A DNA stretch of 64,000 bases from Jiangellaceae bacterium (GTDB taxonomy: Bacteria; Actinomycetota; Actinomycetes; Jiangellales; Jiangellaceae), in assembly GCA_036377395.1 (NCBI GenBank), contig DASUYL010000069.1:5757-69756 (forward strand), written 5' to 3'. Below the pieces are notes generated by a model. The model had not been told where the DNA came from. It did no database searches and saw only the letters and a list, made by a program, of their open reading frames with translations. A program made the translations under genes and the position numbers. This document shows, piece after piece, positions 28,746 through 35,093 of this stretch (positions within the stretch are counted from its first letter, which is position 1; each line of letters begins with the position of its first letter).

Positions 28746-29435
28746 TCACGGCGCGCCCCCGCGACTCGCTGCCGCCTCCAGGTGGGTGACGAACCACTCA
28801 CCTGCGAGGCGGGCGACCTCATCGAGTGCGCCGGGCTCCTCGAACAGATGCGTCGCTCCCTCGACGATCACCAGGTCTCGAACGCAACGCAACTCACCCA
28901 GGGCCTCCTCGTTGAGCCGCAGGACGACATCGTCCCGGCCGCCGACGATCAGCAGTGTCGGGGCATGCACGTCCGCCAGTGCGGTGCCGGCCAGATCCGG
29001 TCGACCACCACGCGACACGACGGCCGCGACCCGGTCGCTCATCCTCGCCGCTGCCACCAGAGCCGCCGCTGCGCCGGTGCTCGCGCCGAAGTAGCCGAGT
29101 GGCAGGTGCGCAGTCGACGGCTCCTGCACCAGCCACCGCGTCGCCGCGAGCAGCCGATCGGCGAGCAGGCCGATGTCGAACCGGTGGCGTCCCGTGCGGG
29201 CGTCCACCCTCTCCTCGGCGTCGGTGAGCAGGTCGGCCAGCATGGTGGCCAGGCCGCGACCCTGCAGCTCGCCTGCGACGCTGCGGTTGCGCGGGCTGTG
29301 CCGGCTGCTGCCGCTGCCGTGGGCGAACAGCACCATGCCGCGGGCGCGCTCGGTCACGGCCAGATCGCCGTGTATCGCCTGGCCCGCAGCGACCTCGATG
29401 GTGACGGTTCGCTCGGATACAGGGTCTACAGCCAC
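28746..29435 (-). CDS. dienelactone-hydrolase-like alpha/beta hydrolase
   Basis: MVLFAHGSGSSRHSPRN, nucleophile elbow GASTG, and C-terminal ATHLFEEPG. The GTG start at 29435 overlaps the upstream stop (GTGGCTGTAG). Confidence 0.8.
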   Translation of the reverse strand: MAVDPVSERTVTIEVAAGQAIHGDLAVTERARGMVLFAHGSGSSRHSPRNRSVAGELQGRGLATMLADLLTDAEERVDARTGRHRFDIGLLADRLLAATRWLVQEPSTAHLPLGYFGASTGAAAALVAAARMSDRVAAVVSRGGRPDLAGTALADVHAPTLLIVGGRDDVVLRLNEEALGELRCVRDLVIVEGATHLFEEPGALDEVARLAGEWFVTHLEAAASRGGAP

Positions 29436-30904
29436 TCGAGGACCTTCCGGGCGAAGGCATCCTGGACCCAGAAGCTGCTGTGGTCGACGGCGGCGGCGGC
29501 AGGGAACACCAACGGATCGGCGGGTGCGAAGCCGTCGAGTCCGGCCACGCGGTGGACGCCTTCGGTCGGCACGATCAGGTCGTTCTCGGTACTGCCGAAC
29601 ACGACGTCGATGAGCGCGTCGCGCGCCGTCCGGGACAGCGGCGAGCCCTTGGTCGGCTCGAAGTTCGAGGCAACGGCACGGTAGGTGCTGGCCGTAGTGG
29701 TGGGCAGGTTGAGGTACTCGCGGAGATAGCTGCCCTTGGGATCCATGGAGGCCAGCCCGTCGAGTCCTCGGAACGCGCCCACGGCGAGTTGCTTCAGGAC
29801 GGCGAGGACGACGTCGACGGTGTCGGTGACCGGATTGTCCGGCACCAGCTGGACCAGGTTCGTCACCCGGTCGAGCAGCGTGTCCAGGTGCTCGGAGTCT
29901 GCCAGGGCGGTGCCCGCGTTCGGCGTGCCTACCATGATCAGATTGCGCACGTCGACGACTCCGCCGAGACCCAGCTCTTGGCCGTGCTCGGCCAAGACCC
30001 GCCCGACCAGACCACCGCGCGAATGGGCGATCACGTCGACGGTCATGCCGAGACCCTGCGGCAGCTGCTTCGCCAGCCACCGGACGTTCTCCGTCGGGTC
30101 CACCGAGATCGTGAAATGGTCGAAGGCGATCACCCGGCCCTCGTAGCGACGATGCAGCTCGCTGATCAGCGGCTCGGGGATCCGGCGGAAGCCGGTGTGG
30201 GCCTGGCTCATGGTCCCGTGGACGAACATCAGCACCGGCCCGGCGGCCAGGGAGGACCAGTCCGGCAGCTGGCCGCCCGCAGCCTGCCGGTACGTGGCGG
30301 GCTCGAACGGCCGCAGGCCGTTGCGCCGGTGATGCTGTTCCCAGCGCGATGCGAAGTAGTCGCCGACCTTGCCCAGCAGGGGATCCACGAGCGGGAACAC
30401 GAGCACCTTGAGCAGCTTGGAGCCCACCATGCCGAGCAGGCCCCGCTGCCCGTCTCCCGCGGAACCCTCCGCCGGCATCACCGCACGCGGTACGCGGTAG
30501 ACGCGGCTGTCACCACCGCGGGACGCCACCGACTCCGGGTCCTGGGGTACGTCCACCGGCAGGTGCCAGCTCACGGTCCCGTCCTCGGCGGTGTAGATCA
30601 GGAACTGGCCCAGGCCGGTTCCCGGTCCGGGCACCTCCGCCTCGATGTCGTTCTCACCACCCGCCGCCCGGCTGCCGGTGCCGTCGTCGCCGGTCTGCCA
30701 GACGTCGCGGATCTCGATCGTCAGCTGTTCTTCGACGCCGGCCCGTTCGAGGCAGTCGAGGAACTCCGCCGTCGCGTCCTCGGCGGCGCGCATTCCGGAG
30801 CCGCCGGCATGATGGACCTCCGCCGTTCCGGTGAGCCCCGGCGTGCGCAGCGTGACGCTGCCGATCGGGACTGCGACACCTGTGGGGTCGAGCTGCTCAG
30901 CCAC
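29426..30904 (-). CDS. protein with a roughly 215-aa N-terminal region of unknown function and a C-terminal lipase/PGAP1-like alpha/beta-hydrolase domain
   Basis: VLMFVHGTMS oxyanion-type strand and an AHSRGG nucleophile elbow (Ser codon 30020-30022). The GTG at 30904 is preceded by CAGGGGGAC and overlaps the CHAT stop (GTGGCTGA). Confidence 0.75.
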   Translation of the reverse strand: MAEQLDPTGVAVPIGSVTLRTPGLTGTAEVHHAGGSGMRAAEDATAEFLDCLERAGVEEQLTIEIRDVWQTGDDGTGSRAAGGENDIEAEVPGPGTGLGQFLIYTAEDGTVSWHLPVDVPQDPESVASRGGDSRVYRVPRAVMPAEGSAGDGQRGLLGMVGSKLLKVLVFPLVDPLLGKVGDYFASRWEQHHRRNGLRPFEPATYRQAAGGQLPDWSSLAAGPVLMFVHGTMSQAHTGFRRIPEPLISELHRRYEGRVIAFDHFTISVDPTENVRWLAKQLPQGLGMTVDVIAHSRGGLVGRVLAEHGQELGLGGVVDVRNLIMVGTPNAGTALADSEHLDTLLDRVTNLVQLVPDNPVTDTVDVVLAVLKQLAVGAFRGLDGLASMDPKGSYLREYLNLPTTTASTYRAVASNFEPTKGSPLSRTARDALIDVVFGSTENDLIVPTEGVHRVAGLDGFAPADPLVFPAAAAVDHSSFWVQDAFARKVLEWL

Positions 30905-32999
30905 GGTCGTCCCCCTGTCCTGGTATGAGCCGTAACCGCGGATGGCCGAACAGCTGGTACGCCACGAACGTGGCGCTGTCGGCCGTCCCGGCGTCGACGT
31001 TGTCGGCCGTGTATGTCGCGCGGATCCTGCGGAGCGCTTCGGCCACCGGCGGTGCGCTGTCCCCGCCGTAGACGACGGTGTAGAAGTCGTCGGCGACTCG
31101 GCTCGCAACCTCGTCCTCGACGTTCCACAACGCGGCAACGACCCCGGACGCGCCGGCCCTCAGGAAGGCGGCGGCCAGACCCGCGTAGTCGCCGAGGGCC
31201 ACCTGGCCCTGCCCGACCTGGCAGGCGTTAAGGAACAGGAACGTGGGTCGCGGCATCGTGACGGCGTCGACGTGCTGCGGCTTGAGGTACTGGGGGCCGA
31301 AGCCTCCGTTGGCCTTCGGTGCCAGCAATACGAGGCCCTGGTCGACGCCCTGCGGGTCGAACCGCCCGTGCAGGGCGACATGCAGGACGTCCGCAGCGGG
31401 CCTCCCGCCCAGACAGTCGAGGACGGCACGGAAGACGGGCTCGATGACGGCCGTCCGCGGATAACGCTTCGCGAGGTCGTCGGCCTCGGCCTCGGCGAAG
31501 GGCAGCTGCGGCCAGCCCGTGACCCCGACGTACTTCGCGGTCAGCACCGCACGGTCGACGACCTCGACGCTGCGCCGGGCGACGGGCTTCGGCCGGGAGT
31601 CGGTGAGGGGCCAGCGGCCGAGCGCCACGTGCGCGCCCAGGAACGGCGACCTGCCGCCGAACGGCGTGACCAGCGGCGGGTTGAACGACGCGAGCTCCCA
31701 CGGCACGTACGGCTCCTCGGTGAACAGCAGCACGGACGCGGCCTCGGTGAGATCGGGCTGCTCCGCAACGTGGCGGATGGCGGCCTGCATGGCCGGTGGC
31801 ACCGCGTCGCCGATCCTGCGGCCGGTTCCGACCAGGAAGGTGTACAGCGCATAGCGGTCGCTGGACGTCGCGACCTCACGTCCGATGTCGGTCGTGAAGC
31901 TCCGCGGGTCACCGAGGTTCTCGGCCCGCTCCGAGTCCGGCACTGGGACGCCAGACGCAGCGGGATAGGCGGCCCACACGTACCCGCCCGGCGCCGTCGA
32001 GTCGGCCCGGAACACGGCGAGCACGAGGTCGGGGGCATCCTCGGCGACCAGCGATGTCAGGTCCAGCAGCTCGCGCTCACGGGTCTGCGGTTTCGGCGCG
32101 CTCGCCATGTCCTCCGCAGTCCGGACCGCGACGACGACGCGCCACGCGATGGCGACGACCACGCCGTCGCGCAGGTAGTGCACGCCGATGCGCCGTTCGT
32201 CCCCGAGATCGTCGCCGTCGAGCGCGGTGAACCGCACGGTTGCCGACGGGTAGGGATCGTCGCGCGTGACCGGCAGCGAGAGCCGGGAGTCGCCGTCGAG
32301 GTGGAGAGACTGCGGGTCGTAGGTCAGCATCACCTCGACGCGCAGGTCGCCCTCGGGGAGGTCGAAGGCCCCGGTACCGACGAGCGTCCGGTCCCGGCGC
32401 GGTGCGATACCGACCGTGACGTCGAAGGGATGATCGATGACGACGACGGACGGCGCGTCGACCCGCGGGTATGCCTCACGCCTGGTGGATACCGGTGCCG
32501 ACCCCGGCGGTTCGTCCACAGCCACCTCGACTCCGAAGTCCGGCAGCTCGATGCCCTCAGGCGATTCAAGGCCCCTGGTCGGAGGTGCGGCTGAGTCGGC
32601 ATCCGAGTCCGCGCTGTCGACCGCGGCTGCCACCGGCCAGAAGCCGGCAAAGACCCGCGAGCTGGCCCGCCGCATCGCCTCCATCGCACCCACCGGGAAC
32701 GGGCCGCACGCCTCGATGTCGGCCGCGAGCGTGAACGGGTCGCCGAGGTCGATCTGGTCCCAGTTCGCCGACGTCAGCCGCTGCCAGGACCCGGCCCTGG
32801 CCAGGGCCACGGACAGCCAGAACCGGACTCGGCCCGACGGTTCCCCGTCGACGAGGCGCTGCACGTCGCCGACGTGCGGCCGCACGTCGTGACGGGCGAG
32901 TGTTCGCGCGGCGTCGAAGCGCCGACTCTCGGTGGTGTCCCGAAGGGCGGTCCAGATCGCCTCGAGCTCGCGGTCGTCGTTCAGATCGGCAGCGCTCAT
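30897..32999 (-). CDS. CHAT-domain (caspase-like) protease with a helical-repeat N-terminus and a beta-rich middle domain
   Basis: C-terminal region with LLFTEEPYVPWELA, VLHVALHG (His codon 31368-31370) and FLFLNACQVGQG (Cys codon 31221-31223), the CHAT His/Cys dyad context. Confidence 0.85.
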   Translation of the reverse strand: MSAADLNDDRELEAIWTALRDTTESRRFDAARTLARHDVRPHVGDVQRLVDGEPSGRVRFWLSVALARAGSWQRLTSANWDQIDLGDPFTLAADIEACGPFPVGAMEAMRRASSRVFAGFWPVAAAVDSADSDADSAAPPTRGLESPEGIELPDFGVEVAVDEPPGSAPVSTRREAYPRVDAPSVVVIDHPFDVTVGIAPRRDRTLVGTGAFDLPEGDLRVEVMLTYDPQSLHLDGDSRLSLPVTRDDPYPSATVRFTALDGDDLGDERRIGVHYLRDGVVVAIAWRVVVAVRTAEDMASAPKPQTRERELLDLTSLVAEDAPDLVLAVFRADSTAPGGYVWAAYPAASGVPVPDSERAENLGDPRSFTTDIGREVATSSDRYALYTFLVGTGRRIGDAVPPAMQAAIRHVAEQPDLTEAASVLLFTEEPYVPWELASFNPPLVTPFGGRSPFLGAHVALGRWPLTDSRPKPVARRSVEVVDRAVLTAKYVGVTGWPQLPFAEAEADDLAKRYPRTAVIEPVFRAVLDCLGGRPAADVLHVALHGRFDPQGVDQGLVLLAPKANGGFGPQYLKPQHVDAVTMPRPTFLFLNACQVGQGQVALGDYAGLAAAFLRAGASGVVAALWNVEDEVASRVADDFYTVVYGGDSAPPVAEALRRIRATYTADNVDAGTADSATFVAYQLFGHPRLRLIPGQGDDRG

Positions 33000-33426
33000 G
33001 TGTGTTCCTTCATCCGCTCCACCGCCGGCGCGATGCGGCCGAACGGGATCGTCGGACCCTGCTCGATGGCGACAATGTCGATGAACACGCGGGCCGGATC
33101 AACGCTGAACTGGATGGCCCGGGCGCCGAGGGGGCTCGTCCCGGTCCGACGTGCCTTGCCGTGCCGTCCAGGTCCACGTACGAAGGGAGGTACGAGCGGG
33201 CACCGGTGATACGTCCCGTCGCTTCGTCATGTGCGACGCCGGCCGGATCGTCGGTCACGTACGTGACCACCTCGACCGGGGTACGCAGCGGTGCGGTGGG
33301 GGTCCGGTCCGGCTCCGGCCGCCGCGCTGCGAGCGCGACATCGCGGATGCTCTGTGGCGCGAGGAGGTGGTCGCCGGTGATGGCGTCCACGCCATTGGCG
33401 ATGAGCAGATCGTCCGGCCCGGTCAT
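32996..33426 (-). CDS. small hypothetical ORF upstream of the CHAT gene; intact only with a frame change near 33130-33160
   Basis: The frame from ATG 33426 (MTGPDDLLIANGVDAITGDH...) has good codon bias until about 33150. A second frame (open from 33226) then takes over the bias and ends in an ATGA overlap with the CHAT start. Confidence 0.35.
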
Positions 33427-33690
33427 GCGGCTACCGTCGCTGGACCTCGCCCCGAACCGGCCCCATGCCGTCCCCCCGAAAGCCCACGCACCACTGTGCT
33501 GTGACACGGCGGCGCCGGCAGCGACGGTCGGCGTCTCCCTGCCGGTGAGCCTACTCCCGCGCACAGCCTGTGGATGGTCAGGGGCGGGCGCGCCGGCCGT
33601 CGTCAACCCGGGCCGGGTGTAGACAGTTCAGTCCCTGCTACTCGACTGTATGTGGTGACCCGAGCGTCGACGAGCCAGGGAAGGTTCACC

Positions 33691-34143
33691 ATGAGCAACA
33701 CCCATCCGGCCGCTCCGAGTAGTGACCGAGCCGCCGTCCACGCAGGAACCCTGTGGGCCGGAGGCGCGGCCACGGCACTCGTGGCCGCACTGATCGCGCT
33801 GGTCGGCATCCTGGTCGTCCGCGAACTCTTCGACACGCCCGTGGTCTACCCACCGGACGATGGTGCCCTCGGCTCGCAGACCACGGCGCTCATGGTCTAC
33901 GCCGCGCTCGCCGCACTCGCGGCGACGGCACTGGCTCACGTCCTGATGCTGACGACCCCGCGAGCGTTGTCGTTCTTCGGGTGGATCATGGGTCTGCTGA
34001 CGATCGCCGTGACGCTCACCCCTTTCATCACCGACGAGAGCACGGAGTCGAAGATCGGCAGTGCGGTCATCTACCTGGTGATCGGTATCGCCATCACGTC
34101 CCTCATCTCCGGTGTCGCGCTTACCGCCCGCCGCCGCGCCTAG
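33691..34143 (+). CDS. hypothetical four-TM membrane protein (DUF6069-like)
   Basis: ATG at 33691 and a hydrophobic segment pattern. Confidence 0.55.
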   Translation: MSNTHPAAPSSDRAAVHAGTLWAGGAATALVAALIALVGILVVRELFDTPVVYPPDDGALGSQTTALMVYAALAALAATALAHVLMLTTPRALSFFGWIMGLLTIAVTLTPFITDESTESKIGSAVIYLVIGIAITSLISGVALTARRRA

Positions 34144-35093
34144 CACTCGGCCTTTGCCATACGCACGTCAACTCGTTGCCCGGGAACGCGCTCCTGCTCG
34201 CGCGCCAGCATGGTGAGCACCCGGACGTCGGCAGCGGTCGGCCTGGCCTGATCGAGCGCACGCGGCCACAGTCCGCGGCGCAGTACCACCGCCGTCTCCG
34301 CGCTGATGACCAATGCCTGGCTGACGAGATACATGACGGCGAAGATCCCGACGACGGCGGCGAAGCTGCCGTAGACGGCACCCGCGCTCGCGGTGGACAT
34401 CGCGACCAGCGTCGAGCCGACTGAAATGATCGCGGCCGTGAGAAGCGCCCCGAGCGCTGCGGCCGGCCACGTCGCTCGAAGCGAGATTCTGCGGACTATC
34501 AGGAGCCTCGCGGCTGTGACCAGGACGACGAACAGCACGACGAACATGCCGACGAAGCTCGCGGAGCGCTCGACCAGGCTGTCGCCGGGCAATGCTGCAA
34601 CCAGCAGGCTCGTGCCGGAGCCGACCACCGCGCCGACGAGAACGACGAGCAGAACGAGCGCGTTGTAGGCGTACCGCGCCACGAAGCCACGCCGGTCGCG
34701 ATGACGGATGGCGACCAGATGGTTGAGGGTGACGTACGCCGACCCCACCACGCCGGTACCCGCATAGAGCAGACCGATGACGCCGACGACGAAAGGCCAG
34801 CCGGTGTCGGGCATCGATGCCAACCCCTCGTCCACGATGGGGTGAAACCGCTCGGGCACGATCTGGTCGATCAAGTCGTCACGTAGCGACGGATTGGCCT
34901 GCAGAATCCGCGAGGTCACGGCGACCGCCAGCAGCATCGCGGGGAAGATGCTGAGGAACCCGAAGTATGTGATGAGCGCAGCGTGTCGGACTCCGGCGTC
35001 GTCGCCGTACTTCTTGATCACCGCGTACGGAAAGCCGAGGAGGGCGTGCCGGCGCTGCAAGTCGTCGACCCGATGGGTGATCCGGCCCATCAC
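34140..35093 (-). CDS. YihY/BrkB family membrane protein
   Basis: AALITYFGFLSIFPAMLL and a six-TM layout typical of YihY. Confidence 0.85.
   Translation of the reverse strand: MMGRITHRVDDLQRRHALLGFPYAVIKKYGDDAGVRHAALITYFGFLSIFPAMLLAVAVTSRILQANPSLRDDLIDQIVPERFHPIVDEGLASMPDTGWPFVVGVIGLLYAGTGVVGSAYVTLNHLVAIRHRDRRGFVARYAYNALVLLVVLVGAVVGSGTSLLVAALPGDSLVERSASFVGMFVVLFVVLVTAARLLIVRRISLRATWPAAALGALLTAAIISVGSTLVAMSTASAGAVYGSFAAVVGIFAVMYLVSQALVISAETAVVLRRGLWPRALDQARPTAADVRVLTMLAREQERVPGQRVDVRMAKAEC

Follow-up and report, generated by a model that had tools for sequence, protein, structure and literature searches.

In the present work, we analyzed a 64-kb window (69% GC) of a Jiangellaceae bacterium genome, i.e., the whole stretch of contig DASUYL010000069.1 to which the window coordinates below refer. 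On its minus strand, a gene for a CHAT-domain protein and a gene for a long alpha/beta-hydrolase of the DUF7379 family form a conserved unit of two genes, which we interpret, with a probability of roughly 0.55, as a protease-effector cassette in which the CHAT protease would cut and activate the hydrolase proenzyme. A preliminary description of this DNA had delimited an operon of four genes, namely the pair plus a small upstream open reading frame (ORF) and a downstream gene for a dienelactone hydrolase (DLH)-like protein. The unit comprises two genes because the DLH-like gene and the small ORF were restricted to Jiangellaceae and no third conserved gene was found in an all-against-all clustering of the six-frame ORFs from 72 loci, where the larger leftover clusters were antisense artefacts or local synteny. 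By contrast, a protease-licensed hydrolase effector, one of the two mechanisms put forward in that description, was the one best supported by the linkage, the fusions and the co-divergence of both genes, by their conserved catalytic residues and by Arg-Gly motifs in predicted loops. The two genes of the pair are located as follows.

30897-32999, minus strand: CHAT (caspase-like cysteine protease) gene, 700 amino acids (aa), first gene of the conserved pair, from the ORF call and the Pfam CHAT match.
29426-30904, minus strand: DUF7379 alpha/beta-hydrolase gene, 492 aa, from the GTG at 30904 to the TAG at 29426, second gene of the conserved pair.

A search of species-representative genomes with a CHAT profile, followed by tblastn and hidden Markov model searches with the window proteins, yielded 67 loci (genomes) with a relative of the CHAT core, five of which were excluded because a contig edge lay too close to the CHAT gene. 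Linkage across genera was consistent: the DUF7379 hydrolase was adjacent or fused to the CHAT gene in 50 of the 62 informative genomes, from about 10 phyla. These included Actinomycetota, Chloroflexota, Acidobacteriota, Gemmatimonadota, Nitrospirota, Planctomycetota, Bacteroidota, Pseudomonadota and a Desulfopila metagenome-assembled genome (MAG). At 47 loci, the hydrolase with its whole N-terminal extension was encoded immediately downstream on the same strand, at distances from -22 to a few hundred nucleotides (nt), mostly below 60; one of these loci (L065) carried a single CHAT-hydrolase ORF. The hydrolase lay upstream of the CHAT gene at one locus (L058) and constituted the N-terminal part of the CHAT ORF at two others (L069 and L070), while about nine informative loci had no hydrolase at all. 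In the reverse look-up, a CHAT gene preceded all three hydrolase homologs examined. Pairwise distances of the CHAT core and of the hydrolase were correlated (r = 0.89), with none of 2000 Mantel permutations giving a value as high. In the window, the CHAT stop codon and the GTG start of the hydrolase gene overlap in the string GTGGCTGA at 30897-30904, an arrangement also present in L001, L005, L006, L039 and L072. Taken at the level of sequence, these comparisons support a real functional pair of CHAT protease and long hydrolase.

Fusions pointed in the same direction. At least 627 homologs of the hydrolase, all of about 490 aa, were found, and a DUF7379 hydrolase profile run against 1.84 billion representatives matched at least 1,284 clusters (50% identity) at E <= 1e-30. 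Both orders of fusion, hydrolase-CHAT and CHAT-hydrolase, were observed, the former also in plasmid-borne genes of Ruegeria pomeroyi DSS-3 and Paracoccus yeei, the products of which are annotated only as "CHAT domain-containing protein". Among the best 150 cluster representatives, about 25 were proteins of ~1,100-1,220 aa that end in the hydrolase, and others were hydrolase-CHAT fusions. Two of the former that were scanned (P0196 and P0205) combined an N-terminal Peptidase_C14 caspase, in P0205 also DUF4384, with the complete extension plus DUF7379. Judged from these domain assignments, the same putative effector is coupled to two clades of the caspase superfamily, CHAT and C14, as would be expected of a portable effector more than of a specific sensor.

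Some loci departed from the common arrangement. Three loci of Ilumatobacteraceae (L025:5845-7236, L028:1807-3207 and L032:5696-7087) lacked DUF7379 and encoded a different hydrolase of 463-466 aa immediately upstream of the CHAT gene. The L025 protein, the only one scanned singly, matched LCAT and PGAP1 and, weakly, Y_Y_Y, and the three loci look like cases of effector replacement within the same scheme. At L014:34-4943, two tandem CHAT-core genes (655 aa, cut by the contig start, and 1,057 aa) preceded one hydrolase gene, i.e., a local duplication of the protease.

With regard to the protease itself, the 700-aa ORF announced in the preliminary description matched the Pfam CHAT profile (PF12770) at residues 493-667 with 71.4 bits vs. 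a cut-off of 24 (E = 1.1e-19). Its product had 68 homologs and was 100% identical to an annotated protein of a Jiangellaceae (Actinomycetota) MAG. An exact look-up of the window protein returned no record, and the context in terms of called genes was taken from relatives. The predicted catalytic contexts, VALHG with H544 and LNACQ with C593, were present; alignment showed a conserved His/Cys dyad, both residues (in ALHG and NACQ) being invariant in 25 relatives and at least 90% conserved in 55. The AlphaFold2 model reached a mean predicted local distance difference test (pLDDT) value of 81.8, and its Foldseek matches comprised separase (5fby, E = 1e-9), the TPR-CHAT protein Csx29 (8eey, E = 1e-8), the CHAT anti-sigma factor DdvA (8rot) and the Arg-specific gingipain R (1cvr). 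As modeled, the protein is of a caspase/separase-like fold. The model agreed with the helical N-terminus and the beta-rich middle domain that had been described, and could be divided as follows, all on the minus strand.

32640-32999, minus strand: N-terminal helical domain, residues ~1-120 (helices at 8-120 in the model), at the variable position.
32490-32639, minus strand: disordered linker, residues 121-170, pLDDT < 50.
32124-32480, minus strand: Ig-like beta-sandwich, residues ~174-292, all-beta and of high pLDDT, where the conserved core begins.
31590-32027, minus strand: alpha/beta region, residues ~325-470, from the secondary structure of the model, preceding the active domain.
30915-31562, minus strand: catalytic CHAT domain, residues ~480-695, with the His544 codon at 31368-31370 and the Cys593 codon at 31221-31223.

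The Ig-like domain, similar in Foldseek to complement MG, CARDB and Calx-beta domains, was conserved in all relatives. The alpha/beta region held invariant P433-W434-E435 and R462-W463 and, given the long structural alignments of the model to separase and Csx29, is possibly a pseudo-protease lobe as in those two proteins. Conservation began at residue ~172, and the N-terminus differed between relatives, which carried TIR, FHA+TIR, TPR, HEAT or TCAD7 (Pfam "Ternary complex associated domain 7"; 8 of 55 CHAT relatives) at this variable position. Neither TCAD7 nor TIR was found by Pfam in the window protein, its N-terminal domain gave no Pfam match even at E = 1, and neither SAVED nor any Pfam domain other than CHAT was detected in the whole protein. 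In tblastn, residues 1-170 matched only CHAT genes of Jiangellaceae. An adaptor domain shared by both N-termini, as in effector-associated-domain pairing, was also considered and rejected, as CHAT residues 1-170 and hydrolase residues 1-224 matched only their own genes in tblastn; this absence of similarity holds at tblastn sensitivity, no profile-profile test having been made. We regard the variable N-terminal domain as a likely, if putative, input or adaptor module. The earlier statement that the locus has no sensor therefore held only in part: no NTPase, SAVED or CRISPR component was present, but this domain is a likely input module.

The hydrolase, described beforehand as lipase/PGAP1-like with an AHSRGG motif, matched Pfam DUF7379 (PF24096) at residues 225-396 with 190.8 bits vs. 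a cut-off of 33 (E = 3e-56), with further weak matches to PGAP1 and Palm_thioest, and contained that motif. Its model (pLDDT 79, predicted template modeling score 0.81) consisted of a beta-rich extension (1-~200) and a lipase-like domain (224-492), the latter resembling bacterial lipases, esterases and thioesterases in Foldseek. In an alignment of 164 diverse family members, on which all conservation values for this protein are based, the catalytic triad was near-universally intact (S295 in 159/164, D442 in 164/164 and H475 in 164/164), with S295 in an HSRGG nucleophile elbow, and H229-G230-T231 would represent the oxyanion-hole motif. The relevant positions are listed below.

30233-30904, minus strand: N-terminal extension, residues 1-224, putative cleavable prodomain.
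29429-30232, minus strand: lipase-like alpha/beta-hydrolase domain, residues 225-492, from the triad and Foldseek.
30020-30022, 29579-29581 and 29480-29482, minus strand: catalytic codons of Ser295, Asp442 and His475, respectively.
30788-30790, 30668-30670, 30518-30520, 30443-30445 and 30440-30442, minus strand: extension codons of R39, R79, R129, R154 and G155, respectively.

The extension was conserved over its full length across phyla. Only eight of its columns reached at least 90% conservation, R79 and R154 among them. R154 was the strongest (97%), with G or S at the following position in 95% of the sequences and a hydrophobic strand thereafter; R79 (93%), R39 (87%) and R129 (80%) shared the same [T/S]-R-[G/S/A] context, which was retained in the caspase-hydrolase fusions. 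The model fell below a pLDDT of 50 at residues 73-82 (R79) and 144-158 (R154) and was of lowered confidence around R39 and R129. The four motifs, located in predicted flexible loops, are candidate cleavage sites, and the hydrolase is probably synthesized as an inactive proenzyme.

The order of domains in one of the fusions bears on how both proteins are annotated. At L069 (3615-7289), a single 1,224-aa protein comprised DUF7362, DUF7379, TCAD7, DUF7363 and CHAT. By position in this protein, DUF7362 may correspond to the hydrolase extension, which in the window matched that family weakly (E = 0.067), and DUF7363, by position in L069 only, to the Ig-like domain of the CHAT protein. Nothing specific on DUF7379 or TCAD7 was found in the literature.

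In the mechanism that we favor, the hydrolase gene would be translationally coupled to the CHAT gene, and a signal perceived by the variable N-terminal domain of the CHAT protein, or in other genomes via a partner protease, would switch on this cytoplasmic enzyme. CHAT would then cleave the extension of the hydrolase after the conserved arginines, chiefly at R154|G155, and the cut would free or rearrange the hydrolase domain. The released enzyme would attack an ester, a thioester or a lipid so that the cell is stopped or killed, and the outcome would probably be an abortive response to a phage or another invader.

A candidate partner protease was a frequent neighbor. At 14 loci, a second, distantly related CHAT protein was encoded immediately next to the pair. 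Its gene was upstream and divergent in several Actinomycetota, and at other loci (e.g., L039, L043 and L062) it followed the hydrolase gene directly. These second proteins carried PD40 repeats (a WD40-like beta-propeller), TPR repeats or a CBM9-like domain. Six of the genes were mapped.

L008:4888-7788, minus strand: second CHAT gene.
L047:4672-6915, minus strand: second CHAT gene.
L077:4788-7322, minus strand: second CHAT gene, in Nocardioides donggukensis.
L039:11205-13139, plus strand: second CHAT gene.
L062:10591-12822, plus strand: second CHAT gene.
L054:4605-8537, plus strand: second CHAT gene.

The second protein may act as an upstream sensor protease and allow a protease cascade; no second CHAT gene was present in the window. 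A further, more tentative proposal, which we hold to be possible rather than probable, is that CHAT or C14 caspases plus DUF7379 make up a distinct and very large family of stand-alone immune or suicide cassettes (the clusters counted above; the family is absent from PADLOC). In these, the lipase-like effector would be kept inactive by a "shreddable" prodomain with several cut sites, and the need for four arginine cuts would serve as a threshold or timer, unlike the Lysobacter hydrolase discussed below, which is cut within its fold. The second sensor CHAT, with its WD40-like or TPR repeats, may feed into such cassettes as a cascade.

The control could also run in the opposite direction, with the protease as effector and the hydrolase as its regulator, acting upstream of it or alongside. 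The hydrolase could then be a pseudo-substrate or inhibitor that occupies the protease with its N-terminal extension, or else a sensing enzyme with a lipid or a small molecule as the signal that it processes. A hydrolase-sensing protease had already been proposed in the preliminary description. Caspase-like proteases that indiscriminately cleave cellular proteins are known effectors, the arginine loops could be bait or a pseudo-substrate, and the protease can stand alone, as CHAT-core relatives without the hydrolase were found in P0010 (L002-L004), L022, L029, L030, L038, L040, L063 and L066. Nevertheless, we judge this wiring to be rather improbable: a triad that is intact nearly everywhere argues that the output is catalytic and that the hydrolase is more than an inhibitor, its fusions to both CHAT and C14 clades point to a portable effector, and in the sole tested precedent it is the protease that activates the hydrolase.

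Whether the proposed protease-effector cassette acts in conflict was assessed from its genomic surroundings, which provided circumstantial evidence. At L076 (310-7213 and 17053-19760), the pair was found directly beside a four-gene cluster of DUF2397, DUF2398, SbcC_Walker_B and DUF3323+DUF2399, which we take to be Wadjet-like, and near two NERD-domain genes. On the R. pomeroyi DSS-3 megaplasmid (NC_006569.1, 129335-136139; L073), an IS5 transposase gene lay upstream of the fusion gene SPO_RS20450 (966-aa DUF7379-CHAT protein), and downstream came SPO_RS20455 (986-aa SIR2_2 plus AAA_21/AAA_15 ATPase) and then a hypothetical gene, an arrangement that suggests a defence-island-like setting in a cultured strain. 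On the metagenome contigs L002-L004, the TIR-CHAT core (P0010) occurred without the hydrolase a few genes away from a D5_N/DUF5906 primase-like gene and a MerR regulator, a context that suggests an integrated mobile element.

Several observations weigh against the proposed cassette or its immune role. None of the four window proteins matched the models of PADLOC v2.0.0. Among viral contigs of IMG/VR, the CHAT profile gave 55 pattern matches, none of which was confirmed as a relative. Housekeeping genes made up most of the ~200 nearest neighbors of related loci (118 + 89), which gave no consistent sign of a defence island and had neither MoxR nor vWA among the most frequent families. Such genes also flank the pair stably, both in the window and in the relatives from Jiangellaceae. 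Furthermore, the conserved arginines could equally serve binding or structure, and the Lysobacter hydrolase (~297 aa) is cut inside its fold, as opposed to the 492 aa with a separate extension found here, so homology and an identical mechanism are unproven.

Part of this evidence would also suit a physiological, non-immune function, such as programmed cell death linked to stress or development, or the maturation of a lipase or esterase for lipid or envelope remodeling. The locus is syntenic across Jiangellaceae, its neighbors elsewhere are mostly metabolic, and PADLOC matches, viral copies and mobile-element genes in the window flanks were all lacking. We consider such a function unlikely, to about the same degree as the reversed wiring. 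The pair is patchily spread over about 10 phyla and its identities do not track taxonomy, a Nitrospirota copy, for instance, being 40-44% identical to actinobacterial ones. Domains as different as TIR, FHA and TCAD7 occur at the highly variable N-termini, a second sensor-like CHAT protein is frequent, and some copies adjoin the presumed Wadjet-like cluster, NERD genes, the SIR2-ATPase gene or IS elements. Maturation linked to secretion is unlikely because neither the CHAT protein nor the DUF7379 hydrolase has a signal peptide as judged by eye.

The other two ORFs of the supposed operon lie on either side of the pair.

28746-29435, minus strand: DLH-like small alpha/beta-hydrolase gene, 229 aa, from the GTG at 29435 to the TGA at 28746, outside the conserved module.
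32996-33426, minus strand: degenerate upstream small-ORF region, from reading frames and a switch in the G+C content at third codon positions (GC3).

As had been claimed, the third protein was DLH-like (Pfam DLH, 25.2 bits vs. a cut-off of 21; Hydrolase_4 also matched), and the stop codon of the hydrolase gene overlaps the start of the DLH-like gene in the string GTGGCTGTAG at 29426-29435; this junction and that between the CHAT and hydrolase genes were both found as described. Start/stop overlaps are commonplace in GC-rich operons. A DLH-like gene was detected in only 2 of 71 related loci, L001 and L006, both from Jiangellaceae, where the overlap was not kept and gaps of ~140 nt and ~570 nt, respectively, separated it from the hydrolase gene. 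In the syntenic, 89%-identical Jiangellaceae locus L005, this slot (L005:5442-6262) was occupied by an overlapping 143-aa ORF, without any family match, and a DUF5615/PIN-like gene, which together look like a toxin-antitoxin pair. This replacement marks the slot just downstream of the hydrolase as a site of gene turnover. The heptamer GTGGCTG, to which attention had been drawn as common to both hydrolase junctions, was rejected as not meaningful, since the two copies arise in different frames and from codons that are not related to each other: one from ...RG* followed by Met-Ala, the other from ...WL*, a C-terminus conserved in the family. Its recurrence is probably a coincidence.

With respect to the small ORF, an ATGA does exist at 32996-32999, at the CHAT start, but the 198-aa frame from the TTG at 33606 does not reach it: it terminates at a TGA (33010-33012) that is out of frame with the ATGA and leaves 10 nt to the start of the CHAT gene. 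The same frame can also be read from an ATG at 33426 (MTGPDD...) to the TGA at 33010, while the frame that ends in the ATGA is open for 30 codons only, from a GTG at 33088, and GC3 indicated that the coding frame switches at about 33170-33200. Because both halves share one frame in L005 and L006 (L001 has a 58-aa version), the window copy is, on sequence comparison, frameshifted, either by decay or by an assembly error. The region contained many indels among relatives, and conservation was limited to the last ~10 codons, where the ribosome-binding site of the CHAT gene (AAGGA) is located. The small ORF had no Pfam or PADLOC match and was not found outside Jiangellaceae. Hence, the description was right on three of its four ORFs and on two of its three overlaps, whereas the small ORF was not a single one. 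An operon with all four genes as integral parts, although they lie on one strand, hydrolase and DLH-like genes overlap in the window and a DLH-like gene recurs in L001 and L006, is very improbable in view of the rarity, variable spacing and replacement in L005 of that gene and of the frameshifted, indel-rich and lineage-restricted small ORF.

The flanking genes named in the preliminary description (ferredoxin reductase, membrane proteins and YihY) were borne out by ORF calls and Pfam. DoxX-like and ferredoxin-reductase-type genes lie on one side, DUF6069 and YihY/BrkB genes on the other, and TAL and SnoaL genes were also found in the flanks. The upstream neighbors of the CHAT gene, encoding a DUF6069 membrane protein (33574-34143, plus strand) and a YihY/BrkB-family protein (34140-35093, minus strand), were kept in L005 and not in L001 or L006. 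In the latter two, the CHAT gene was preceded by a SnoaL-like gene and by a 261-aa ORF, so the insertion context varies even within Jiangellaceae. NCBIfam gave nothing useful on the window proteins, and a consensus scan for promoters and terminators between 28300 and 33900 returned 0 sites, the consensus being uninformative at 69% GC.

The specific family described here is large, uncharacterized and absent from PADLOC, while the principle behind it was predicted in 2020 and demonstrated in 2025. Its members are annotated only as "CHAT domain-containing protein" and "esterase/lipase family protein". Death effectors gated by proteases are emerging as a common principle in bacterial immunity, which has its parallels in the caspase pathways of eukaryotes, and the hydrolase branch is the least understood among them. 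The pair would not surprise a specialist, yet it offers unusually concrete, testable predictions, i.e., the cut sites R39, R79, R129 and R154|G155 and the catalytic residues H544/C593 and S295/D442/H475, with natural fusions such as that of R. pomeroyi DSS-3 as possible single-chain test cases. If correct, the proposal would add a second hydrolase architecture to the one already known to follow the zymogen principle, and would aid the search for what such hydrolases destroy.

Among known systems, there was a resemblance to type IV Thoeris (TIR plus a caspase-like protein): some relatives fuse TIR or FHA+TIR to the same CHAT core (P0010 and P0011), whereas the window protein has no TIR, and the caspase-like protein of Thoeris is the terminal effector, with no hydrolase partner described. 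Gasdermin-protease operons and Pepco/EACC1/MBL pairs share the logic proposed here, in which a latent death effector is freed when an adjacent protease removes an inhibitory segment. They differ in that the putative effector of the window is an alpha/beta-hydrolase enzyme and not a pore former or a nuclease, with no such genes in the locus. A gasdermin operon was discarded, the adjacent genes being DUF7379, DLH and the degenerate small ORF. With the CHAT proteases Csx29/TPR-CHAT (Craspase, type III-E) and SAVED-CHAT/PCaspase (type III-B), the window protein has the CHAT domain and the Csx29 fold match in common. A triggerable, site-specific protease acting on the product of a neighboring gene, as proposed here, would be a further likeness to CHAT systems of the CRISPR/CBASS type, and the second adjacent CHAT of many related loci would permit a cascade. 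Unlike those systems, the locus has no CRISPR array, cas genes, SAVED or cyclase, and the presumed target is a hydrolase instead of Csx30 or sigma-factor components. A CRISPR- or SAVED-linked CHAT system was rejected on these grounds, as no CRISPR-like spaced direct repeats were found in the whole 64 kb, no SAVED domain was detected and PADLOC gave no match.

The present pair also resembles the NTP-dependent ternary conflict systems, MoxR-vWA-VMAP/GAP1, in which caspase-superfamily domains always occur with a neighboring alpha/beta-hydrolase (Kaur, Burroughs, Iyer and Aravind 2020, eLife, PMC7159879). The pairing logic is the same, and TCAD7 occurs in some CHAT relatives, as described above. 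These systems differ from the window, where no MoxR, vWA, VMAP-C, GTPase or STAND gene was present and the pair is self-contained; nor were such genes among the ~200 nearest neighbors of related loci. A ternary MoxR-vWA system was rejected in the absence of MoxR and vWA from the window and from the frequent neighbor families.

A direct precedent is LcCaspase/LcHydrolase of Lysobacter capsici AZ78, where LcCaspase cleaves the adjacent alpha/beta-hydrolase LcHydrolase at two sites, R73|G and R117|G, and toxicity is confined to the cleaved form (Evans et al. 2025, bioRxiv, PMC12642450). The preliminary description knew of no described system with this arrangement, a view that does not hold, since the pairing was reported by Kaur et al. 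2020 (PMC7159879) and activation of the hydrolase was shown by Evans et al. 2025 (PMC12642450). LcHydrolase, of ~297 aa, is cut within its fold, and LcCaspase has an N-terminal caspase domain with the catalytic Cys at residue 129 (PMC12642450). In the window, by contrast, an Ig-like domain and a second lobe precede the CHAT domain (Cys593), which is at the C-terminus, and the 492-aa hydrolase, which was compared with LcHydrolase by its published description, carries a separate 224-residue extension with four arginine motifs. Both cases have in common an adjacent caspase-superfamily protease and lipase-like alpha/beta-hydrolase, which here evolve together (50/62, r = 0.89), a protease with variable extra domains, and Arg followed by Gly at the cut sites, proven in Lysobacter and proposed here. 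With membership of the characterized family unproven, the analogy indicates that the locus most likely works like these caspase/alpha-beta-hydrolase zymogen modules.

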